Part shown: in pieces, positions 1 to 10,489 of the stretch
Layout of the letters: each line of letters starts with the position of its first letter
Numbering within the stretch: position 1 is the stretch's first letter
Virus record (IMG/VR): IMGVR_UViG_2703718820_000012
Coordinates: 1-10,489 of that record
Length of the DNA: 10,489 bases
Reading direction: 5' to 3' (one strand)
Source of the DNA: a virus
Lineage: Duplodnaviria > Heunggongvirae > Uroviricota > Caudoviricetes
The notes under the pieces: generated by a model
The model's input: only the letters and a program-made list of their open reading frames with translations
Told to the model about the DNA's origin: nothing
Database searches by the model: none
Program-made: the position numbers and the translations under genes

Positions 1-1
1 G

Positions 2-688
2 GACCAGGAAAAATGGAGCGGCGACGGTGCCGGACTCAAGGCCATCACCGGCGGCGATGCGGTGTCCGTGGACCCGAAATACCGGGATGCGTACTCCACG
101 CATATCCCGGCGGTAATTCTGGCCGTGAACAATAACCCGATGCGCTTCACCGACCGCAGCGGCGGCGTGTCACGCCGGCGGGTGATTATTCACTTCCCGG
201 AACAGATAGCCCCGCAGGAGCGCGACCCGCAGCTTAAGGACAAAATCACCCGCGAGCTGGCGGTCATCGTGCGTCACCTGATGCAGAAGTTCAGCGACCC
301 GATGCTCGCCCGGTCACTGCTTCAGTCCCAGCAGAACTCAGACGAGGCGCTGAACATCAAACGGGATGCCGACCCGACGTTTGATTTTATCGGCTATCTG
401 GAAACCCTGCCGCAGACCAGCGGCATGTATATGGGGAACGCCAGTATCATCCCGCGCAATTACCGTAAATACCTCTATCACGCCTATCTGGCCTACATGG
501 AGGCAAACGGCTACCGGAATGTACTCAGTCTGAAAATGTTCGGGCTGGGGCTGCCGGTGATGCTGAAGGAATACGGACTGAATTACGAGAAGCGCCATAC
601 CAAACAGGGGATACAGACCAACCTGACGCTGAAAGAGGAAAGCTACGGCGACTGGCTGCCAAAATGTGACGACCCTGCAACAGCCTGA
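2..688 (+). CDS. P4 alpha-like DNA primase/helicase, C-terminal portion (5' end lies upstream of the window)
   Basis: The listed ORF (62..688) starts at an internal GTG. The same frame is open from nt 2 with no stop in 2-61 (DQEKWSGDGAGLKAITGGDAVSVDPKYRD...). The sequence resembles the C-terminal region of phage/plasmid P4-family primases as I recall them. It is followed by an intrinsic terminator and by TGTTCACC iterons, the known binding motif of P4 alpha. Confidence 0.8.
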   Translation, partial: DQEKWSGDGAGLKAITGGDAVSVDPKYRDAYSTHIPAVILAVNNNPMRFTDRSGGVSRRRVIIHFPEQIAPQERDPQLKDKITRELAVIVRHLMQKFSDPMLARSLLQSQQNSDEALNIKRDADPTFDFIGYLETLPQTSGMYMGNASIIPRNYRKYLYHAYLAYMEANGYRNVLSLKMFGLGLPVMLKEYGLNYEKRHTKQGIQTNLTLKEESYGDWLPKCDDPATA

Positions 689-695
689 CCCACCT

Positions 696-720
696 GACCG
701 GCATCTGCCGGTCTTTTTTT
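696..720 (+). terminator. Rho-independent terminator of the primase gene
   Basis: Stem gaccggc (696-702) pairs with gccggtc (707-713), with loop atct, followed by a run of 7 T (714-720). It lies 8 nt after the TGA stop. Confidence 0.75.
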
Positions 721-738
721 ATCCCGACATCCCCCGAA

Positions 739-767
739 GGTGAACAATCCACTGTTCACTCTTCACT
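739..767. promoter_or_regulatory. Partial alpha-binding iteron cluster (TGTTCACC type)
   Basis: GGTGAACA at 739-746 is an exact reverse complement of TGTTCACC. TGTTCACT at 753-760 matches 7/8, and tcttcact at 760-767 matches 6/8. The arrangement is the same as at the start of each crr-like repeat further downstream. Confidence 0.55.
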
Positions 768-1149
768 GTATATCCCCCGTACCAATATGAATTTAGTGAC
801 AAGAAAACATAAGTTGAACAGGAAAACCCAAAGAACTTTTTATCCCCCTCCAGACATTACCTGTCGCATCCATATTGAGCAAAAAATCTCATAGATAGAG
901 TGGTATTATTAACGTTTATCGCTTATCTAAATAGTAAAAACAAAATGCGATTCTAATTTTATTCACAGGGTAAATAACTGAAATTATCTAAATAACTATA
1001 AACCCCTCATATATATAAATAAATTATACCACATAACCAAAATACGATATTCTGCTGAGATCATTAAATTTAAGCTTATTTCAATGGCTATTACTCTAAA
1101 GATTTGTTAATAACCAGTCGTCATGAAAATATACTTACAGTTATGTTTA

Positions 1150-1158
1150 TGCTATAAT
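1150..1158 (+). promoter_or_regulatory. Candidate extended -10 promoter element for the HAD gene
   Basis: tgcTATAAT has a TGn extension plus a perfect TATAAT at 1153-1158, 28 nt upstream of the ATG. No convincing -35 element is present. A strong Shine-Dalgarno GGGGAGG lies at 1175-1181. Confidence 0.35.
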
Positions 1159-1185
1159 CAGTGACAAATATTTTGGGGAGGAATT

Positions 1186-1872
1186 ATGAAAATTTGTTTT
1201 TTCGATATGGAGGGGACTTTACTTGAAAAGAACTCATATTTAGATAATGGAAAAGTTGCACCGAGCGCGTGGACAGTACTTGCCAAAGAAATCAGCGAAG
1301 CTTGTTTTATTGAAGAGGAAAAAACAAAAGATTTATGGCTAGCTAATAAATATATCAGCTATACACAATGGATGAAAGAAACTGTTGAAATACAAATCAA
1401 ACATGGAATGAACAAAAATCACCTACAAACGGTATTATCTCAAGCGAAGATACAAAAAGGTGCTGTGGAACTTATTCATTATTTGAAAAGTCAAGGATAC
1501 TTAACAGTATTGATATCTGGTGGGTTTAAAGAATTAGCAGACCTAACTCAAAAGAGCCTAAAAATAGATCATGCATATAGTGCTTGTGAATATTTTTTTA
1601 GGAAAGATGGTAGCATTGAGCACTTCAATCTATTACCAACAGATGAGGAAGGGAAACTGGTCTTCATGAAACACCTTGCCTCTGAATATAACGTAGAACT
1701 TGAAAATTGTATTTTTGTTGGCGATGGGAAGAATGATGTTTTTATCGCCAAAAATGTAGGTACTTCTATAGCCTTCAATGCTCAGAGAGAATTAAGAGAA
1801 GTATCTACATTTATTGTAGACCAAGAAACACCTGATTTATCAGCGATTATTGACCTTATTAGAACTATTTAA
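1186..1872 (+). CDS. HAD-superfamily hydrolase, subfamily IB (phosphoserine-phosphatase-like)
   Basis: A strong RBS (GGGGAGG) sits 4 nt upstream of the ATG. HAD motifs are visible: motif I FFDMEGTLL, motif II VLISGGF, and motif IV VGDGKNDVFIAKNVGTSIAFNA (GDGxND). The layout resembles SerB. The gene sits in AT-rich DNA. Confidence 0.8.
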   Translation: MKICFFDMEGTLLEKNSYLDNGKVAPSAWTVLAKEISEACFIEEEKTKDLWLANKYISYTQWMKETVEIQIKHGMNKNHLQTVLSQAKIQKGAVELIHYLKSQGYLTVLISGGFKELADLTQKSLKIDHAYSACEYFFRKDGSIEHFNLLPTDEEGKLVFMKHLASEYNVELENCIFVGDGKNDVFIAKNVGTSIAFNAQRELREVSTFIVDQETPDLSAIIDLIRTI

Positions 1873-2673
1873 TCGATTTTGGAAGTCAAGTTTATCTTTA
1901 ACTATTTCCAGTTGTTCCTCTAACTGTTTTATCTTTGATTCAGACTGTAATTTGTACTGATTAAATTCATTTAAGTCAAATTTCTCTGAGAAATAGTAAT
2001 CTCTCCCAAAAGAAATTAGCGAGAGGAATAACCCAACAACAGCGATCATCGTTCCTATTTTAGTTATCGATATAATTGATAATTTTTCAGTTAGCTCTTT
2101 GCTTATCTGCTCTTTTAGAACTACTGGTTCTAAAAAAGTTTTAGGAAAATTACTTATATCTGAAACACGGTAAGATCTATATTCATTATATTGTTCTATA
2201 ACATCATAAGAACTAGGCACAGCAGAAGCCGGTTGATAATTTGGATTTTTTTCTATTTCATGGAATACAACTCTAAAGAAAGATTTATCTTGCTCACTAT
2301 CAGTAACTGGAAGATATTCCTCTACAGCTGAGAAATTAATTAACAGTGTTGATATCGGACCGTTATATCCAGAATCGATAATACCAGTATTGAGTGCAAG
2401 AAACCCCTTTTGCGATAATCTATTTTTTAAAAATACATATGCAATAAAACCCTCTGGCACATGAAGTATTTCTTCTGATATTACAAAAGCCGAATCTTGC
2501 GGTTTAAGTAAAGTTCTTCCGAGAGATCTTACATGATTTTTTTCATCTTTAAAAAGAATTTCCCTAATAGAAAGATCCACACTTGATTTATTAGAATAAT
2601 CTTTTGTGATTTTTTTGTTATATCTATCACAAACAAACCCATATTCAATTGCTTTTTGAGCACTAATCTGCAT
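1840..2673 (-). CDS. dUTPase/dCTP-deaminase-fold protein with C-terminal transmembrane helix and coiled coil
   Basis: RBS aggtga lies upstream of the ATG at 2673. LKNRLSQKGFLALNTGIIDSGYNGPISTLLINFS aligns by eye with E. coli Dut ([35 protein letters not shown]) and Dcd ([33 protein letters not shown]). The hydrophobic stretch IGTMIAVVGLFLSLISFG spans aa 206-223 (nt 2005-2058). A heptad-like tail KLQSESKIKQLEEQLEIVKDKL follows. Confidence 0.75.
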   Translation of the reverse strand: MQISAQKAIEYGFVCDRYNKKITKDYSNKSSVDLSIREILFKDEKNHVRSLGRTLLKPQDSAFVISEEILHVPEGFIAYVFLKNRLSQKGFLALNTGIIDSGYNGPISTLLINFSAVEEYLPVTDSEQDKSFFRVVFHEIEKNPNYQPASAVPSSYDVIEQYNEYRSYRVSDISNFPKTFLEPVVLKEQISKELTEKLSIISITKIGTMIAVVGLFLSLISFGRDYYFSEKFDLNEFNQYKLQSESKIKQLEEQLEIVKDKLDFQNRLNSSNKVNNR

Positions 2674-2721
2674 ACTTCACCTAACTTAGCTTATTCTATC
2701 GAACAATAATTGAATCACATA

Positions 2722-2751
2722 GTTATAATGTAACTAGACGAATATATCCAA
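2722..2751 (-). promoter_or_regulatory. Candidate sigma70 promoter for the Dut/Dcd-like gene
   Basis: On the minus strand, TTGGAT (2746-2751) is followed by an 18-nt spacer and TATAAC (2722-2727), about 50 nt upstream of the ATG. This rests on a by-eye match to consensus only. Confidence 0.25.
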
Positions 2752-2892
2752 TGTTTTTGAATATATTATTGACGAAGCAAGTCAACTGATCAATACTGTG
2801 TATAAAAAAACAACATCTTCACCACATATAAAAAAAACATAAAATCATGGTACTACCTCAAAGTCCTGACTCCTGCTGAATTGCTTAATCAT

Positions 2893-2990
2893 AAGAAGCG
2901 CCATACAAAACAGGGAATAAAGAGCAACCTGACGCAAAAAGAGGAAAGCTACGGCCACTGGCTGCCAAAATGTTACGCTCCTGCAACAAC
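2893..2990 (+). pseudogene. Remnant of a second alpha-primase 3' end (copy B of the repeat)
   Basis: It encodes KKRHTKQGIKSNLTQKEESYGHWLPKCYAPATT, homologous to the last ~33 codons of the intact primase gene. There is no upstream coding body and the original stop is lost, so the frame reads on into the terminator and iterons. Confidence 0.75.
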
Positions 2991-2998
2991 CCTACCTA

Positions 2999-3022
2999 GA
3001 CCGTCCTCTGCCGGTCTTTTTT
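2999..3022 (+). terminator. Degenerate copy of the primase terminator
   Basis: gaccgtc (2999-3005) pairs with gccggtc (3010-3016) with one mismatch, followed by 6 T. It is homologous to the terminator at 696-720. Confidence 0.5.
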
Positions 3023-3039
3023 ATCCCGGCCCCCCAGAA

Positions 3040-3345
3040 GATGAACAATCCACTGTTCACCTTTCACCGTATATTCACCTGTTATCATACTGAAATTAAA
3101 AGAGAAAAATGAAAGGTGAACAGTGTGAACAATCAAATCAAAAAAACTCTTTTCTCCTTGTGTGATTTCAGTCCGGGGAATTAATCACCGGTATGAGTCA
3201 CACCGGCAGAATGCCGGAGGTGAAGAATCAAATGTTCACCCTTCACCCATTATTCACCACCTATCATACTGAAAGTAAAAGAGAAAACAGAAAGGTGAAC
3301 AGTGTGAACAGTTCTTTCGAAAAAAACTTTTTTCCTGTACGATAC
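3040..3345. promoter_or_regulatory. crr-like cis replication region: two ~125-bp direct repeats carrying TGTTCACC iterons
   Basis: Exact TGTTCACC occurs at 3054-3061 and 3233-3240. Exact GGTGAACA occurs at 3115-3122 and 3294-3301. 7/8 variants occur at 3040-3047, 3072-3079, 3124-3131, 3219-3226, 3251-3258 and 3303-3310. The units are about 3040-3165 and 3219-3345, with a 179-bp period. This matches the published description of P4 crr as two 120-bp repeats separated by 60 bp. Confidence 0.75.
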
Positions 3346-3618
3346 AGCATCAATCAAAGTAAAAATGAGCTTTCATTCCACATTAACTTACAGCCATTGG
3401 TATACAATTAGGTATACGCACAAAAGCTGAATTAAATAAAATAATTAAAAATCAAAGAAATAAAATACTTATTCAAACTCCGCCAGCCCAATCATGATTG
3501 GACGGTGTAAGGACAACACCAACAAAAACAGGAAGTTAGCAGTCTCAGCAGGACACCGACCAGACGGTGAGGAGACAAAAAAGGATACGCAAAGGAGCCG
3601 CGGCTCTCGAGTGACACA

Positions 3619-3649
3619 AAAGCCCGCTTATGCGGGCTTTTTGTTTTTC
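3619..3649 (+). terminator. Rho-independent terminator with no upstream protein-coding gene
   Basis: Stem aagcccgc (3620-3627) pairs with gcgggctt (3632-3639), with loop ttat, followed by tttgttttt. No ORF of 60 aa or more ends here. Confidence 0.65.
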
Positions 3650-3718
3650 CCTTAAGTTCCTAGCCGCTTATCTATAACTATGGAAAAATGTTAACCCTGA
3701 CTGTATGTTAACAAAGGG

Positions 3719-4933
3719 ATGTATATGTCGGTTTTTCATAACTGGCTGCTTGATATCGCAAGCGGGAATTACTTTATCTACATCAAACGCCTTTCTGCAA
3801 ACGACACAGGCGCAACAGGTGGCCATCAGGTCGGACTTTATATCCCCTCAAATATCGTTGAAAAGCTTTTTCCATCAATCAATCATACTCGCGAACTGAA
3901 CCCTTCAGTCTTCCTTACTGCGCATGTATCATCCCATGATTGCCCTGATACCCAAGCACGCGCAATTTATTACAACAACCGTTATTTTGGTAAGACCCGA
4001 AACGAAAAAAGAATTACGCGCTGGGGGAGAGGAAGTCCATTACAGAACCCTGAAAATACAGGAGCCCTCACAATTCTTGCTTTCAGGTTAAACGAACAGA
4101 ACACTGACTGTTCCGAGGTAGATATATGGGTCTGCGTCAATCCCGATGAAGAGGATATCATCGAGTCTGCTATTGGCGAAATCATACCTGGAACCCTAAT
4201 TTCCGGCCCTGCCGGACAAATTTTGGGCGGATTGTCTCTTCAGCAAACTCCAGTAAATCATAAATATGTTATTCCTGAAGACTGGAAGAAGCGTTTTCCT
4301 TCTGGAAACGAAATTATTCAATATGCTGCTGGCCATTATGCTAAAAACTCCAAGGATCCAGATGAGCAACTGATTGACCGTCGGCGTGTCGAGTATGATA
4401 TTTTTCTACTCGTCGAGGAATTACATGTTCTTGATATTATTAAGAAAGGATTCGATTCTGTAGATGAGTTTATTGCATTAGCCAACTCTGTCAGTAATCG
4501 ACGTAAATCAAGGGCAGGCAAATCACTTGAACTTCACCTAGAGAAGCTTTTTATCGAGCACGGACTACGGCATTTCTCCACTCAGGCAGTTACTGAAGGT
4601 AATAAAAAACCAGATTTCCTGTTTCCTTCAGCAGAGGCATATCATAACGTTGAATTTCCTGTAGAAAACTTACGTATGCTGGCAGTAAAGACCACCTGCA
4701 AAGATCGCTGGCGTCAGATACTGAATGAAGCAGATAAAATCCATCAGGTACATTTATTTACACTGCAAGAAGGTGTTTCTTCAGCACAATACCGAGAAAT
4801 GAAAGATGCGGGTGTCAGACTCGTTGTACCATCAACTTTACATAAAAAATACCCAGAAGCAGTTAGAGAAGAATTAATAACGCTCGGAGCATTCATTACT
4901 GAGCTGATAGAGCTTTACGCTGAACTATCATAG
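3719..4933 (+). CDS. ecoRIIR: Type IIE restriction endonuclease, EcoRII family (CCWGG)
   Basis: The 404-aa product is near-colinear with EcoRII as I recall it (SVFHNWLL...YIKRLSANDTGATGGHQVGLYIP...KKPDFLFPS...LAVKTTCKDRWRQILNEADK). Counting from the ATG at 3719, residues fall on the literature numbering: R88, E271, D299, Y308, K324, E337. An alternative ATG at 3725 has better SD spacing. Confidence 0.93.
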   Translation: MYMSVFHNWLLDIASGNYFIYIKRLSANDTGATGGHQVGLYIPSNIVEKLFPSINHTRELNPSVFLTAHVSSHDCPDTQARAIYYNNRYFGKTRNEKRITRWGRGSPLQNPENTGALTILAFRLNEQNTDCSEVDIWVCVNPDEEDIIESAIGEIIPGTLISGPAGQILGGLSLQQTPVNHKYVIPEDWKKRFPSGNEIIQYAAGHYAKNSKDPDEQLIDRRRVEYDIFLLVEELHVLDIIKKGFDSVDEFIALANSVSNRRKSRAGKSLELHLEKLFIEHGLRHFSTQAVTEGNKKPDFLFPSAEAYHNVEFPVENLRMLAVKTTCKDRWRQILNEADKIHQVHLFTLQEGVSSAQYREMKDAGVRLVVPSTLHKKYPEAVREELITLGAFITELIELYAELS

Positions 4934-4938
4934 GCTGA

Positions 4939-4961
4939 CTCCCGGCTTAAAAGGCCGGGAG
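4939..4961. terminator. Hairpin between the convergent R and M genes (possible bidirectional terminator)
   Basis: ctcccggc (4939-4946) pairs with gccgggag (4954-4961), with loop ttaaaag. It sits in the 34-nt gap between the two stop codons. Neither side has a clear T tract. Confidence 0.45.
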
Positions 4962-4967
4962 ATGTTC

Positions 4968-6401
4968 TCAAGGCTGCCCAGTCTTACCAGCATCAGCAGA
5001 AACAGCTTTGAGGATATAGGGTTCCAGAAGTCTGGCAACAGCTTCAAATACTGGCACCACAACTGAGTTACCGAACTGCCGATATGACTGAGTATCTGAA
5101 ACCGGAATACGGAATGGTTTCCCTCCAGGTTTTTCAAATCCCATAAGGCGTGCACACTCTCGGGGAGTCAGCCTGCGTGGTCGACGAGCCTGATTACTCT
5201 CATTCATAAAGTCAGCCTCTCCCGTTGCCATATCCCAACCACGATCAATAAGAATTTCTGATCCGTCTTTGTGATATCTGGCAGAAAGTGTGCGTGCAAT
5301 GCTTTCCTTATTCTCAGGATTGACCAACCCAAAGCCAAAACCATTCCCCTTGGCTGCATGCTTTTTGGCGTAGTTATAAAGGTACTCCCATAGTTTTGGC
5401 GTAAGTATATATTTACTGTCGACTACAGGCTCCAGCAATTCACCAAATGATGGGCGGTGTTCCGGATAAAAACGACTGATATCACGCAAGGTAAACCCCT
5501 TGTGAATATTCAGATCTCGTCTAAATCCGACCAGAACAATGCGTTCACGATGCTGAGGCAAAAAATGCTTCCCATCGATAATCTTTGGATCGTTTTTTCC
5601 CATTTCTGCAGCATCGGCAACTTCGTAGCCCAGCTCGTCAAGGGTCTCCATAATCACTTTGAAAGTTTTACCCTTATCATGGCTCTTCAGATTTTTGACA
5701 TTTTCCAGCACAAAAATTGCCGGTTTTTTTGCTCGTATAATACGTGCCACGTCAAAAAAAAGTGTTCCTTGTGCTTCACATTCAAAACCATGCGCACGAC
5801 CAAGTGAGTTTTTCTTACTAACACCAGCAAGGCTAAATGGCTGGCACGGGAACCCCGCAAGAAGCACATCATGATCCGGCACATGCTCATCAATATATGC
5901 ATAAGCATCCGTTTCCAATACATCGGTTTTATCACTCAGCGTGACTTCCCGAATATCGAGATTGAATTTATGCACCTGTTCATCGTTAAACCAGTTGGCT
6001 TTGTATGTACGCACAGCATCTTTATTCCATTCACTGGTAAAAACACACTGGCCTCCAATGGCCTCAAAACCTTTCCGTATCCCTCCAATTCCAGCAAATA
6101 AGTCAATGAAGCGGAAAGCATATTCCGGATGGTTTGCAGGTGGTTCTGGTAGCATCTTACGCAGAAGAGACTCTTCTACTGAAGTCAACGATTTTGGTAA
6201 ACACTTGCCATTAATCCAGCGGTTAATGGTTTCACGGCTCCACTCATTTTTTCCGACTTTTCTCAGTAATTCAGCCACATACTTCTGATCATAGATTTCC
6301 AGCACTTTCTCGATAAGCTTTTTATCATTTTCCTGTCGCAGCTTTTCTTCCGCCTCGGCTTCCTTCAGCAGATGCTGTGCCAACACTTCAAATTCAGACA
6401 T
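4968..6401 (-). CDS. ecoRIIM: DNA (cytosine-5) methyltransferase, M.EcoRII/Dcm family (CCWGG)
   Basis: The C5-MTase motifs are all present: [10 protein letters not shown] (I), GFPCQPFS (IV), FVLENVKNL (VI), QHRERIV (VIII), [11 protein letters not shown] (IX) and GNSVVVPV (X). The preferred start is the ATG at 6401 (MSEFEVLAQ...), preceded by GGAGG 5 nt upstream. This gives 477 aa and places the catalytic Cys at position 186, as in M.EcoRII. The ORF-track start at 6443 has no RBS. Confidence 0.93.
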
Positions 6402-6762
6402 AATTCCTCCAAGGGGTCTAATGGGTGAAACTTTATCACTCATTCAACCCAGAAGGAAATGTTTTATCTGGATATTTAAACAGTGACTACAACGTAATCT
6501 AGCACTGGTGATGCTTTGTTAGGCATAGAGAATCATTCTATATACGACTAATGACAGAAAAACAGCAGACAAGTAGTTTGTTCATAAATTAACGCATACT
6601 ATGTGTCTACGGTTTTCGAGACCGGTCCAATCATCAAACGAAACATAAAATTAGCTCACATTATGAGGAAAAGTATCTTTTTTGTACTATGTAAATTCAA
6701 AGGCTTAGCCTCATTTCTCCGATGGTTTTCTCAACACTACTGGTTGTGAGCCCTTGCAATGA

Positions 6763-7581
<819 letters not shown>

Positions 7582-7600
7582 GTCTTTAAGTGATAAGCAT

Positions 7601-7642
7601 AAACCGCAGCACGATCTTCTTCCATACGACGTGCTACGGTTT
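7601..7642. terminator. Long hairpin between the convergent GIY-YIG and invertase genes
   Basis: aaaccgcagcacg (7601-7613) pairs with cgtgctacggttt (7630-7642). The stem is 13 bp with one mismatch and the loop is 16 nt. It abuts the invertase stop codon. The T tracts are weak. Confidence 0.45.
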
Positions 7643-8196
7643 CATTTATCTCCGACCGGAAACTTCTTATACAGTGTCGATATACCAACATCATAGATGA
7701 TCGCCACCTTCTGGCGAGGAACGCCTGATGCAATTAATCGCCCGGCCTGCGCCCATTGTTCTGGTGTAAGTTTGGGACGACGTCCACCAATTCGTCCCTG
7801 TGCGCGAGCAGCTTCCAGTCCAGCTTTTGTTCGTTCAACAATCAGTTCTCGTTCCATTTCAGCCAGGGCACCCATCACATGAAAGAAAAAACGCCCCATC
7901 GGTGTGCTGGTATCAATAGCATCCGTCAGACTGCGAAAATTAACGCCACGTTCGCGCAACTCCTCAACCAGAATGACCAGATGCCGCATACTACGCCCCA
8001 GCCGATCCAGCTTCCAGACAACCAGAGTGTCACCTGCCGATAATGTCCTGAGCAGTTTTTTCAGTCCCGGCCTTTCGGACTTTGTACCGCTTATCTTGTC
8101 TTCAAAAATCAGCTCGCATCCTGCACAGTTCAGCGCATTACGTTGTAGATCTGTGTTCTGGTCATTTGTTGATACGCGTACATAGCCAATAAGCAT
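7642..8196 (-). CDS. pin: Serine-recombinase DNA invertase (Pin/Gin/Hin/Cin family)
   Basis: MLIGYVRVSTNDQNTDLQRNAL...VVWKLDRLGRS...MGRFFFHVMGALAEMERELIVERT...GRIGGRRPKL...IYDVGISTLYKK is the hallmark of this family. It includes the catalytic Ser in YVRVST and a C-terminal HTH. The true start is the ATG at 8196, giving 184 aa, the same length as e14 Pin. The ORF-track start at 8232 adds 12 unsupported residues. Confidence 0.93.
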   Translation of the reverse strand: MLIGYVRVSTNDQNTDLQRNALNCAGCELIFEDKISGTKSERPGLKKLLRTLSAGDTLVVWKLDRLGRSMRHLVILVEELRERGVNFRSLTDAIDTSTPMGRFFFHVMGALAEMERELIVERTKAGLEAARAQGRIGGRRPKLTPEQWAQAGRLIASGVPRQKVAIIYDVGISTLYKKFPVGDK

Positions 8197-8250
8197 GGTA
8201 GATCCCCCTGACAAAAGCAGGAATGATGCCATCTGCTCGTTATTTCTGCA

Positions 8251-8276
8251 TTTTCATAAACGTTGGTTTGGGAGAA
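8251..8276. promoter_or_regulatory. 26-bp invertase crossover site (pix/gix-like), invertase-proximal
   Basis: ttttcataaacg-tt-ggtttgggagaa is the reverse complement of TTCTCCCAAACC-AA-CGTTTATGAAAA. This matches the Din-family AAACC-NN-GGTTT core. It lies in inverted orientation to the site at 9782-9807 and shares its central AA/TT dinucleotide. Confidence 0.85.
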
Positions 8277-8630
8277 GCGGCAAAACGGAATGTAGGTAAC
8301 GGGCAAAACCAAATTCCGGATATGGCGGCGTTTGCCAGTTCACTTTCATCAACGGGTTTTCAAAAACTCCCTTCAGGTCTGATTATTCAGTGGGGTATTG
8401 TCAGTGGAGCATCAAACTATACGGTGACTTACCCGGTAACATTCCCAAATCGTTCACTTGCGCTGTTGGCTGTGCCACATACAACGTCGGTGGCTGGTAT
8501 ATCTGCAATGGGCATAGCGAACTGTTCTGATATCAGCAAATCACAGTTCTATATAATTGTTGGCGGTATATCTCAGGGAGAAATTGTCAAATATGAAAGG
8601 TCCTGTTTTTGGGTAGCAATCGGTGTATAG
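8265..8630 (+). CDS. Alternative tail-fibre C-terminal cassette (silent orientation, no start of its own)
   Basis: [23 protein letters not shown]... parallels [23 protein letters not shown]... of the expressed fibre, then diverges. After inversion it would be in frame with the constant part (9796-10489). The ORF-track portion 8223-8264 lies outside the segment and is spurious. Confidence 0.75.
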   Translation, partial: GLGEAAKRNVGNGQNQIPDMAAFASSLSSTGFQKLPSGLIIQWGIVSGASNYTVTYPVTFPNRSLALLAVPHTTSVAGISAMGIANCSDISKSQFYIIVGGISQGEIVKYERSCFWVAIGV

Positions 8631-8638
8631 GTATATCT

Positions 8639-9034
8639 ATGATTTATTTCTCAAAATCGACTAATGGTTTTTTCTTTGATGGTATAAACAGCGACATGCC
8701 TGCTGACATTGTTGAGATAAGTACAGACTTATACAATGAATTAATTGCCGGACAGCAGGAAGGGGGGAAATTAATCACGTCAGATGAAAATGGTTTACCG
8801 GTACTGAAATCTCCGGCGATTGATTATGTCGCACGTGCTGAAAATCAGCGAATGCAGTTACTTGCTCATGCCGATAATGTCACAGCTGACTGGCGGGTGG
8901 AATTAATGCTTGGTGATATCAGCAGTACAGATAAAGAAAAACTATCTGCCTGGATGGACTACAAAAAAGAAGTAAAAGCCGTCGACACTTCGACGGCTCC
9001 TGAGATTAGCTGGCCTGAGTTACCGGAGGTGTAG
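8639..9034 (+). CDS. tfa: Tail-fibre assembly protein (partner of the silent cassette)
   Basis: MIYFSKSTNGFFFDG...LYNELIAGQ...[30 protein letters not shown] follows the typical Tfa/U-family layout. It lies directly downstream of the fibre cassette. The start is placed at the ATG at 8639 rather than the ORF-track start at 8609. Confidence 0.8.
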   Translation: MIYFSKSTNGFFFDGINSDMPADIVEISTDLYNELIAGQQEGGKLITSDENGLPVLKSPAIDYVARAENQRMQLLAHADNVTADWRVELMLGDISSTDKEKLSAWMDYKKEVKAVDTSTAPEISWPELPEV

Positions 9035-9425
9035 GCCATTCAATATCTGGCGCACCGGAAGTATCGACCAGTTCCAGTGCGTCCAGGTAATCCAGCCACA
9101 AATTATATTGTGCCAGTTCCTCACCTTTCAGCCGGCCAATAGCCGCTTTACCAGGCCATTGTTTACTGTTCATATAATCGTTGGCCTGTTCAATAAGTAT
9201 ATTTTTCATTCCCTCCGCTTCAGCTATTTCCTGTTCATGTGTCTTCGCTGGATATTCAGTAAGTACAGGGTAGTTATCCGGGCTATTGATAATAATTTTC
9301 CCCGTACTCTGACCATTCATAAGTTCATAATAAAGAGCATCTTCAATATCGAAAGCATCATCGGGAATATCGCTGTTGTTTTCAGAGAAAAATCCCTGAA
9401 CAGATGGGGACCATTTCATTTTCAT
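9006..9425 (-). CDS. tfa: Tail-fibre assembly protein (partner of the expressed fibre)
   Basis: [15 protein letters not shown]...LYYELMNGQ...[28 protein letters not shown] is a paralogue of the 8639-9034 product. Its start overlaps the fibre stop (ATGA overlap at 9422-9425). Confidence 0.8.
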
Positions 9426-10489
9426 AATTTCCCAATTCCTAAAATATGGACATCATCAGCCTTACGGGCATTCCAGGTGACAATTACATCGGTAGAGTGA
9501 CGATTAACTGAGATTGCGTATGCTTCGTTAGTCGAGCCAGAAACTTTTGTGGCAAACACAGCAAACAGGACACCAAATGACTGGGGCCATTTATAGCCTG
9601 ACAGCTGATAATTACCATTATCCAGTGTTACAGCTTTGACTGCTGCACTTGATGGAATCGTCAGCCACTGGAGTATCAACCCTCCTGGCAAAAGTTGTTT
9701 TCCATAAAAATCCCTCACACCACTAAATGAAACCATATCCGGTATCTGATTTTCCCCTGTTCCCACGTCCCGTTTTGCCGCTTCTCCCAAACCAAGGTTT
9801 TCGAGAGCCGTTTGCACAGTGCCATCCGATTTGATATCGCCAAACGGATTCTTGCGGCTTAACAGCAGCGCACGAAGTGCGGTAAGCATCTGGTCATGCC
9901 GCCCTTTCTCCAGGCTGGCACCGGAGGCCTCCACCACGCTACAAAGTTCTTCCTGCAACATGTCAAAGTAGTCATCATCCAGATCGGTGGCAGGTGTGCC
10001 GGTCTGGGGGTTACCACGGGTATCCGGTTTGTCGGTGTTACTGCCCTGACCGTTCTCTCTGTGACGATGCCCGTTATAGGCAAGCCGCATCGCTGACATG
10101 GTGGTGCCGCCGGAGTCGCACAGGTCTTTCACCTGTCCGGTCACTTCCAGGTCCATTTCAAAACGTGCTTCAGGTGCATTGCGAAACGTGATCGTTTTAC
10201 CTGCACCGTCCACCACGATCCCCTCCCGGGTCAGCGTCACGGACTGCCCCTGATCGTCATAGACAGCCACCTCGCCCGTCTGCAGCCCTTTCAGGCGGTA
10301 GCGACGGTCCGACACCGTAACAACCACCGCATGAGAACGGTCGCCATCCGGAAACAACACCACCGCTTCCGCACCGCTGTTTGCCCTTGCGGTAAAACCG
10401 TAGGGTTCAAGATGTTCAACCCCGGCTTTGGGTTCACCGGCAATCAGGGACACATCCACGGTCTGTAGTGGCACACTAAATTTGGCCAC
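9422..10489 (-). CDS. Tail protein: Mu Gp45-like baseplate domain fused to an invertible tail-fibre C-terminus (5' end probably beyond the window)
   Basis: The N-terminal part [55 protein letters not shown]...YNGHRHRE resembles the Mu Gp45 / baseplate assembly V family. The C-terminal part [37 protein letters not shown]...[13 protein letters not shown] is tail-fibre-like and crosses the inversion site at 9794/9795. The frame is open to the window edge. Confidence 0.75.
9782..9807. promoter_or_regulatory. 26-bp invertase crossover site (pix/gix-like), within the fibre gene
   Basis: TTCTCCCAAACC-AA-GGTTTTCGAGAG is a near-palindromic Din-family site. It is inverted relative to 8251-8276 and sits at the constant/variable junction of the fibre ORF (codons LENLGLGE). 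Confidence 0.85.

Follow-up and report, generated by a model that had tools for sequence, protein, structure and literature searches.

The right-hand part of the window (the whole 10,489-nt stretch of DNA that was analysed, from the Caudoviricetes record IMGVR_UViG_2703718820_000012) carries an invertible segment with its invertase gene on one side and the remains of tail and baseplate genes on the other, as follows:

7642-8196, minus strand: pin invertase gene, encoding a 184-aa small serine recombinase (Pfam Resolvase, E 9e-52; HTH_7, E 5e-13)
8112-8174, strand not applicable: candidate Fis-dependent recombinational enhancer in the 5' coding region of pin, with 15-bp Fis-type cores at 8112-8126 and 8160-8174
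8223-8630, plus strand: stub ORF with silent fibre tip B (tip B at 8265-8630; ATG at 8223, outside the segment; Gp53-like_C, E 2e-15; 135 aa)
8251-8276, strand not applicable: pin-proximal 26-bp site (pix), TTTTCATAAACGTTGGTTTGGGAGAA, core TT at 8263-8264, 26/26 identical to the pinE-proximal site of K-12 e14
8639-9034, plus strand: tail-fibre assembly chaperone B, cognate to tip B (Caudo_TAP, E 2e-24)
9006-9425, minus strand: tail-fibre assembly chaperone A, cognate to tip A (Caudo_TAP, E 3e-22)
9422-9794, minus strand: fibre tip A, now joined to the constant part in a continuous ORF (Gp53-like_C match weak, E 0.006, below threshold)
9782-9807, strand not applicable: distal 26-bp site (pix) inside the fibre gene, TTCTCCCAAACCAAGGTTTTCGAGAG, core AA at 9794-9795, 26/26 identical to the stfP-side site of K-12 e14
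9795-10021, minus strand: what is left of the fibre constant part (residues 22 to about 97, the fibre having 220 aa), judged against strain DAM and K-12 StfP, whose fibres are intact
10021-10022, strand not applicable: junction of a 2,127-bp deletion that removed gp46, gp47/J, gp48/YmfQ and the fibre 5' end, with a 2-nt TA microhomology
10022-10463, minus strand: fragment of the baseplate V (Mu gp45-like) gene, codons about 30-177 (Phage_Mu_Gp45, E 5e-20), as aligned to V of strain DAM
10464-10489, strand not applicable: terminal inverted repeat of an IS3-family insertion sequence, which interrupts V

The first-pass annotation had described an intact-looking, shufflon-like switch in which all parts were present, and each part that it listed was recovered in place, pin itself lying outside the interval given for the switch (8251-9807) and adjoining the 1.5-kb segment. 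The true start of pin is the ATG at 8196 (184 aa), as opposed to that of a 196-aa ORF, and its product shares 95% amino acid identity with K-12 PinE, 77% with Mu Gin and 80% with P1 Cin. The catalytic serine ascribed to the invertase is Ser9, within YVRVSTNDQ, which is invariant in a four-way alignment of Pin, PinE, Gin, and Cin. Equally invariant are Arg7, Asp64, Arg65, and Arg68, which we take to be active-site residues of the resolvase family. Over its first 110 nt the gene does not differ from K-12 pinE. Regarding expression, a simple scan gave neither pin nor the stub ORF a convincing sigma-70 promoter, and its counts fell below the shuffle mean.

A Fis-dependent enhancer had been proposed as something to look for in the 5' part of the invertase gene, and at the sequence level a fitting motif pair is found at 8112-8174. 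Measured between centres, the two Fis-type cores are 48 bp apart and the proximal one is about 96 bp away from the left site, and a KNNYRNNWNNYRNNM pair with 48-bp spacing occurs only once in the window, against an expectation of 0.68 for all 10.5 kb. Taken strictly, the Fis consensus GNNYRNNWNNYRNNC fits the distal core only, the proximal core requiring the relaxed K/M form. The identical sequence occurs in K-12 pinE, with hardly any variation in gin and cin, and the layout is that of the Hin enhancer, which measures 65 bp, has Fis sites at both ends and lies about 100 bp from hixL (PMC3798978). Motif, spacing, homology and this geometry point to a candidate Fis enhancer in the pin 5' region.

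The two 26-bp sites are inverted with respect to each other, each being an imperfect dyad with a half-site symmetry of 8-9/12, and they do share the central AA/TT dinucleotide reported at first reading. The perfect inverted stretch (8263-8288 versus 9770-9795) covers 26 nt with this core dinucleotide, the 24 nt initially counted being the stretch internal to it, and sits in a 68-nt, 84% inverted repeat (8258-8325/9733-9800); by our own estimate, the chance expectation of a 26-nt perfect inverted repeat in 10.5 kb is about 1e-8. The distal site encodes LENLGLGE, and the pin-proximal site matches Mu gix at 17/26 positions. No further recombination site was found in the window, where the other near-matches have three mismatches and stand at chance level. 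With only two sites, a multi-site shufflon of the R64 type or a Min-type system is rejected, and the label "shufflon-like" has to be dropped: neither an Rci-type tyrosine recombinase nor multiple sites for permuting segments are present, the recombinase being of the serine/resolvase type.

Between the sites lie two opposed cassettes, each made up of an alternative fibre C-terminus and, after it, the cognate chaperone gene, as in the Mu G and P1 C segments. Tips A and B are 63% identical across their first 43 aa (through LPxGLIxQW), and BLASTP finds no similarity between them beyond that point. Their complete divergence had been placed after NQIPDM, which is too early, as the conserved LPxGLIxQW block still follows, but it holds beyond this block. 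The two chaperones, both Caudo_TAP proteins, are 33% identical to each other, and a terminator-like hairpin with a 12-bp stem follows chaperone A on the minus strand (8974-9001). When the segment is inverted in silico, tip B comes in frame with the fibre constant part, as had been claimed for the alternative C-terminus at 8265-8630, giving a 353-aa product with its stop at 8630. Besides this product, the stub ORF is present in both orientations, with 135 aa in the window and 137 aa after inversion, as an open frame only.

The word "intact" can only be retained for the switch itself, i.e., invertase, sites and cassettes, while the fibre gene that it feeds is broken, lacking its start codon and first 21 codons. 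BLAST against a relative with the full baseplate cluster, L001 (the others being L002, L003, and L009-L013), jumps from 10420 to 12548 at the deletion, and the V fragment is joined in frame to the fibre remnant, forming a V'::fibre fusion. The sequence at 10464-10489, where V is cut, recurs thousands of times in E. coli genomes beside a transposase gene, and one same-lineage assembly, L019, runs on into the insertion sequence, whose OrfA matches HTH_Tnp_1. By means of exact-protein look-ups, the same deletion junction was located in assemblies L014 and L015, while L019-L023 align to the window continuously across 10021/10022; each of these assemblies stands for further similar contigs, and the present contig is carried by GCA_023720095.1, GCA_049955235.1 and GCA_011836895.1, among others. 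An exact search for the junction gave 0 matches in GTDB species representatives and 0 in JGI metagenome contigs. That the fusion might be an assembly artefact is rejected, as the junction recurs in L014, L015, and L019-L023, in both orientations of the segment. Rfam at gathering thresholds returned nothing in the window, and the att boundary accordingly has no called tmRNA remnant.

This decay bears directly on the most obvious function of such a locus, namely a working host-range switch, in which an inducible prophage would release virions with either of two receptor specificities, like Mu G(+)/G(-). Every part of the switch is there, and close relatives (L012, DAM, and ANT) combine the same cassettes with a complete Mu-like tail/baseplate module. 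The present locus, however, has no complete fibre N-terminus with a start codon inside such a module: the fibre is without its first 21 residues, gp46, gp47/J and gp48 are deleted, V is split by the insertion sequence, and the annotation pipeline calls only a 186-aa product from a CTG start. The host-range reading is thus already contradicted at the level of the sequence and is extremely improbable. The two receptor specificities inferred in the first-pass annotation could not be displayed on a virion from this locus, because the fibre 5' end and three baseplate genes have been lost and V is interrupted.

The segment itself has turned. L014 is the window with 8265-9793 inverted, showing 0 mismatches over 3472-10462 against the in-silico inverted window, whereas the orientation of the window is also found in L015 and L019-L023. 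Likewise, two isolates from Lebanese seawater, DAM and ANT, whose genomes are of near-identical size, have the segment in opposite orientations, the end points of the inversion falling inside the repeats. When complete E. coli genomes are aligned at a coverage of at least 80%, the orientation of the window is seen in 18 and the inverted one in 8. Flipping has taken place in nature, and both orientations occur within the exact lineage. Considering the decay of the prophage, the switch could be thought of as a frozen fossil, with parts that look intact in a segment that no longer inverts in this lineage. This is improbable, since assemblies with an identical junction, all ending at the same insertion sequence, occur in both orientations with no other difference in the segment, and since no mutation separates the enhancer region, the two sites or the pin ORF from the functional K-12 versions. 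The present copy of Pin is probably active, but the segment could be flipped in trans by another Din-family invertase encoded elsewhere in the genome, as is the case with PinQ in K-12 (PMC12529663).

The same inversion could in principle be produced by RecA-dependent general homologous recombination between the 68-nt inverted repeats, with no part played by Pin, and any crossover within the 26-nt identical block would yield the same product, so that sequence alone cannot discriminate between the two routes. Yet a perfect match of 26 nt does not exceed the shortest length that RecA uses efficiently, and the repeats are exact copies of sites known for their use by Pin. Furthermore, K-12 pinE mutants as well as pinE pinQ mutants are locked in a single orientation (PMC12529663). 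The RecA route is accordingly very unlikely.

With all cis and trans parts of the switch intact and the exact predicted inversion product existing in a sister assembly, the locus is very probably a still-turning allele, in a prophage relic, of the P-segment/Pin switch of E. coli e14, which belongs to the Fis-enhancer-dependent serine DNA invertases of the Hin/Gin/Cin/Pin family. The mechanism can be outlined from that of the invertase family. Pin dimers would bind the two 26-bp pix sites and Fis the enhancer within the first 85 nt of pin, and the three elements would assemble into an invertasome on supercoiled DNA. Ser9 would then make 2-nt staggered cuts at the central TT/AA of each site, and a single 180-degree rotation of subunits followed by religation would leave 8265-9793 inverted. 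The last ~120 residues of the fibre would thereby be swapped (tip A or tip B) and the matching chaperone gene brought downstream of the fibre gene. In its outline this is the two-site inversion of the Pin/Gin type, exchanging fibre C-terminus and chaperone together, that the first-pass annotation had envisaged.

The closest known counterpart is the e14 segment of K-12, whose inversion is experimentally documented and has been seen in cultures and between genomes (PMC4272514; PMC12529663). The gene order is the same in both, with fibre, chaperone, opposed chaperone, opposed tip and invertase (StfP/TfaP, TfaE/StfE', and PinE in K-12); both 26-bp sites are identical, and so is 95% of Pin. In both, the switch belongs to a decayed prophage with a Mu-like baseplate remnant, has no functional virion fibre to control, and is associated with a defence gene after pin. 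The cassettes differ, however, both tips being here of the short Gp53-like type (with the match of tip A below threshold) and the StfE tip of K-12 being unrelated, and the segment measures 1.53 kb as against 1.8 kb in K-12. Different too are the decay events, here the in-frame V::fibre fusion and the insertion sequence in V, and the defence genes, with PD-T4-3 and an EcoRII-like restriction-modification system in place of mcrA.

As in the Mu G/Gin and P1 C/Cin systems, the gene of a serine invertase (77-80% identical) immediately flanks the segment and has the candidate enhancer region conserved in its 5' end, and fibre C-terminus and chaperone are swapped together; the 26-bp sites are 17-18/26 identical to gix. 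Unlike the present relic, Mu and P1 are functional phages in which the switch alters host range, and in Mu the gix core dinucleotide is TC/GA instead of AA/TT, the G segment is 3 kb long and the tips are much larger. Salmonella Hin/hix has in common with the locus the recombinase family, the 26-bp sites and an enhancer of ~65 bp with Fis sites in the invertase gene, ~100 bp from the proximal site (PMC3798978), the enhancer being a candidate here. In Hin/hix, on the other hand, it is a promoter that is inverted and the invertase gene is part of the segment, whereas the present switch exchanges a coding C-terminus and has pin beyond the segment.

Another proposal for why such a switch persists comes from the recombinase-activated phage inhibition described for PinQ and e14 StfE2 (Kirigo et al., NAR 2025), which involves a homologous invertible segment and a chimeric stub-plus-tip ORF beside pin. 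By analogy, the host might have kept the flipping segment as a domesticated defence toggle, in which the stub-plus-tip ORF (8223-8630, or the 137-aa alternative) or the fibre remnant would block the surface receptor of lytic phages. Such a chimeric ORF does exist here, as an open frame, running from an ATG on the pin side of the segment into a fibre tip; this ATG lies outside the segment in both orientations, and the stub is similar to the beginning of K-12 StfE. Tip B shows distant homology to the StfP tip, from which StfE2 is formed (34% over 82 aligned positions, E 1e-7), the neighbours are PD-T4-3 and the EcoRII-type restriction-modification system, and the switch was kept intact while the adjoining tail genes decayed. 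Such a role has been reported for the homologous K-12 segment, with e14 StfE2 acting against T2 (PMC12529663). However, that function is known for K-12 StfE2 against T2 alone, whereas the tips here are strongly different from those of K-12. The only Shine-Dalgarno-like sequence of the stub ORF, AGGA at 8219-8222, is poorly placed, abutting the ATG, and the reading frame of the stub largely follows from the site sequence itself. Moreover, selection cannot be measured, because all copies in the lineage are nearly identical. On balance, a defence role seems unlikely. Were it true, flipping would toggle which stub-plus-tip protein, or V'::fibre remnant, is made; this protein could mask an outer-membrane receptor as a bet-hedging defence beside the PD-T4-3 and EcoRII-like systems, and the single case of K-12 StfE2 would be joined by another with a different pair of tips.

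The exchange of two tail-fibre tips by DNA inversion of the E. coli e14/Pin type is well known, the kind of system being that of the e14 P segment, Mu G and P1 C, and in this respect the finding is an ordinary one, with little new biology beyond the textbook e14/Mu/P1 type. Identical genes are already in RefSeq as pinE, tail fiber assembly protein, and gp53-like protein. In practical terms, the fibre ORF of the window is properly annotated as a V'::fibre fusion remnant and not as a fibre gene, and the invertible segment is a source of assembly ambiguity and of strain-to-strain "inversions" that carry no phylogenetic signal. With regards to the e14/Pin-type switch, it still turns here without control over a functional virion fibre, and this lineage thus provides a natural example of a recombination switch that is active though its payload has decayed, which bears on the recent claim that cryptic-prophage inversions serve phage defence of the host.

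Every testable feature places this locus in the P segment/Pin system of e14, the cryptic prophage of E. coli K-12, as one of its alleles. Its parts, in the right third of the window, are arranged as follows.

7642-8196, minus: pin invertase gene, start codon ATG at 8196, product 184 aa (Pfam Resolvase, E 9e-52; HTH_7, E 5e-13)
8251-8276: left 26-bp site, central dinucleotide TT at 8263-8264
8265-8630, plus: fibre-tip cassette, tip B (Gp53-like_C, E 2e-15)
8639-9034, plus: chaperone gene B (Caudo_TAP)
9006-9425, minus: chaperone gene A (Caudo_TAP)
9422 upward, minus: fibre ORF (tip A end), with the second 26-bp site inside
9782-9807: right 26-bp site, within the fibre ORF, central dinucleotide AA at 9794-9795
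10464-10489: IS3-family terminal repeat (TGTAGTGGCACACTAAATTTGGCCAC), interrupting the baseplate gene V after about codon 29

The first-pass annotation had placed a complete switch at 8251-9807; all its parts are indeed present, but the invertase gene falls outside these coordinates. The two sites are mutually inverted with the AA/TT cores that had been read, and the 24 nt of perfect inverted identity also claimed become 26 nt (8263-8288 versus 9770-9795) when the core dinucleotide is counted, 24 nt being internal to the core, inside a 68-nt inverted repeat of 84% identity. Each site is an imperfect dyad having 17-18 of its 26 positions in common with Mu gix. No third recombination site was found in the window: the other near-matches carry three mismatches and are as frequent as expected by chance. 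The label "shufflon-like" was rejected, the system consisting of a serine recombinase and two sites.

In the window orientation the constant part of the fibre reads into tip A and chaperone A, while the opposed cassette, tip B with chaperone B, has nothing but a 14-codon stub in front of it. When 8265-9793 is inverted in silico, the fibre frame stays open through tip B to a stop at 8630, in agreement with the in-frame alternative C-terminus proposed for 8265-8630. The tips are 63% identical across 43 residues (GLGEAAKR...LPxGLIxQW), with no BLASTP match beyond, and the chaperones are 33% identical. A strong terminator-like hairpin (8974-9001, minus; 12-bp stem and T run) directly follows the chaperone A stop and lies within the 3' end of chaperone gene B, which runs the other way; the opposite direction yielded no counterpart.

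Pin shares 95% of its residues with PinE, 80% with P1 Cin and 77% with Mu Gin; Arg7, Asp64, Arg65, Arg68 and the catalytic Ser9 that had been noticed earlier are invariant among the four. The search for a Fis-dependent enhancer in the 5' part of the invertase gene, suggested by the first-pass annotation, was run with the degenerate Fis consensus KNNYRNNWNNYRNNM on both strands of the whole window. Two matches were found at pin nt 23-37 and 71-85 (8160-8174 and 8112-8126), 48 bp apart centre to centre, the sole such pair on either strand against 0.68 expected per 10.5 kb. The centre of the proximal match lies about 96 bp from that of the left site, TAATG is present between the matches, and both cores hardly vary among pin, gin and cin, even at third codon positions. 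At the sequence level this candidate enhancer agrees with the published one of Hin, which spans 65 bp with a Fis site at either end, lies about 100 bp from hixL and has AT-rich ATTTA and TAATG between its Fis sites (PMC3798978). By analogy with the family, Pin dimers would bind the two sites and Fis the enhancer, an invertasome would assemble on supercoiled DNA, Ser9 would make staggered cuts at the TT/AA cores, and a single 180-degree rotation would precede religation. Inversion swaps the C-terminal ~120 residues of the fibre as one unit with the chaperone encoded downstream.

All cis and trans parts of the switch are intact, and the predicted recombinant exists. The native-orientation query matches E. 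coli strain DAM, whereas the query with the segment inverted in silico finds strain ANT at 100% coverage; both are seawater isolates from Lebanon (genomes of 4,603,065 and 4,603,072 bp), and their sole difference at the locus is the inversion, with end points within the repeats. Among complete E. coli genomes at ≥80% coverage, 18 have the window orientation and 8 the inverted one.

The surroundings of the switch are decayed. At 10021/10022 the window jumps from position 10420 to 12548 of L001 (comparison with strain DAM), a 2,127-bp deletion with a 2-nt (TA) microhomology at its junction. Lost with it are the gp46, baseplate J/gp47 and YmfQ/gp48 genes and, from the gene for the 220-aa fibre, codons 1-21 (MHRIDTKTAQKDKFGAGKNGF). 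An in-frame fusion results between fibre residue 22 and residue 177 of the Mu gp45-like baseplate protein V (Pfam E 5e-20). Thousands of copies of the 26 nt at 10464-10489 exist across E. coli genomes beside a transposase gene, the OrfA of this element matching HTH_Tnp_1; sister contig L019 continues into the IS and others stop exactly there, and the window is apparently an entire draft-assembly contig with repeats at both bounds. Complete E. coli genomes, GTDB representatives and JGI metagenome contigs do not contain the junction, which is found in contigs L014, L015 and L019-L023, each standing for further similar ones. The remnant's annotated product (186 aa, CTG start) is recorded in 31 protein-collection blocks, on short contigs every time. 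The deletion is real and clonal. The full baseplate cluster is kept in every relative with a long enough contig (L001-L003, L009-L013), including the complete genome L012 (GCA_964047305.1, OZ039912.1), whose prophage at 6661-15787 matches the inverted window at 99.9% identity and appears to represent the undeleted, intact ancestor type of the lineage. With the deletion and the IS in place, no functional virion fibre can come from this locus, which contradicts its reading as a working host-range switch.

A frozen fossil that no longer inverts is likewise contradicted, and here the window's own lineage gives more direct evidence of flipping than the comparison of strains. L015 is collinear with the window across 3472-10461 with 0 mismatches, and L019-L023 are collinear at 99.96-100% identity, whereas L014 matches the window as inverted in silico, with 0 mismatches over 3472-10462 and no difference whatever at 8200-9850. 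Both L014 and L015 have the lineage-specific junction, and therefore the segment has inverted, conservatively and at the predicted place, after the 2,127-bp deletion arose. In published work on K-12, both orientations of the homologous segment coexist in clonal cultures, and mutation of pinE, or of pinE together with pinQ, locks it (PMC4272514, PMC12529663). RecA-mediated inversion is unlikely in view of these K-12 genetics and of an identity of only 26 nt. Since another Din-family invertase could drive flipping in trans, the activity of the window's own pin copy is what we infer.

Regarding a function other than host range, a role of the segment in host defence is possible. The stub ORF (8223-8263, plus; MMPSARYFCIFINV) has its ATG at 8223, beyond the edge of the invertible segment and 26 bp away from the start of pin, which is on the opposite strand; it continues into the tip that happens to adjoin it and is open in both orientations. 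It resembles the beginning of K-12 StfE (MPFACYFFIFINV), which forms the N-terminus of the StfE2 chimera reported in PMC12529663, a homologous stub-plus-tip protein, and tip B is distantly homologous to the tip of K-12 StfP. Defence genes are also neighbours: a LEM-3-like GIY-YIG protein (6808-7581, plus) matches PADLOC anti-phage system PD-T4-3 over its full length (E 1e-139), in the pin-adjoining place held by mcrA in K-12 e14, and an EcoRII-type restriction enzyme (EcoRII-N and EcoRII-C; 3719-4933, plus) is convergent with a Dcm-type C5 cytosine methyltransferase (4968-6443, minus), a pair that is part of a small cluster of defence genes where the prophage ends. Against this role, the stub's ribosome-binding site is poor and its frame is largely dictated by the site sequence.

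The prophage/attachment boundary lies at 3472-3488. Relatives L003, L020 and L021 have ssrA and smpB directly beside it, whereas in the window a P4-like satellite end (1-3470) intervenes; no tmRNA fragment was found in the window by Rfam. The last ~113 nt of the satellite's primase C-terminal ORF (62-688) and its terminator are repeated at 2884-3080 (85%). The repeats flank a convergent HAD-like hydrolase (1186-1872; marginal, partial PADLOC match only, PDC-S34, E 3e-4) and dCTP-deaminase/dUTPase-like protein (1840-2673; no PADLOC match), a pair that may be uncharacterised satellite hotspot cargo.

The switch system itself is already known. K-12 e14 likewise has the order ymfQ, stfP, tfaP, tfaE (opposed), stfE' (opposed), pinE; both sites are identical to the two K-12 sites (26/26), as are the first 110 nt of pin to pinE, and RefSeq genomes annotate identical genes as pinE, tail fiber assembly protein and gp53-like domain protein. 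The same family includes Mu G/Gin, P1 C/Cin and Salmonella Hin. What is added here is modest, namely that inversion of the switch went on after the fibre and baseplate genes of the lineage had been destroyed.
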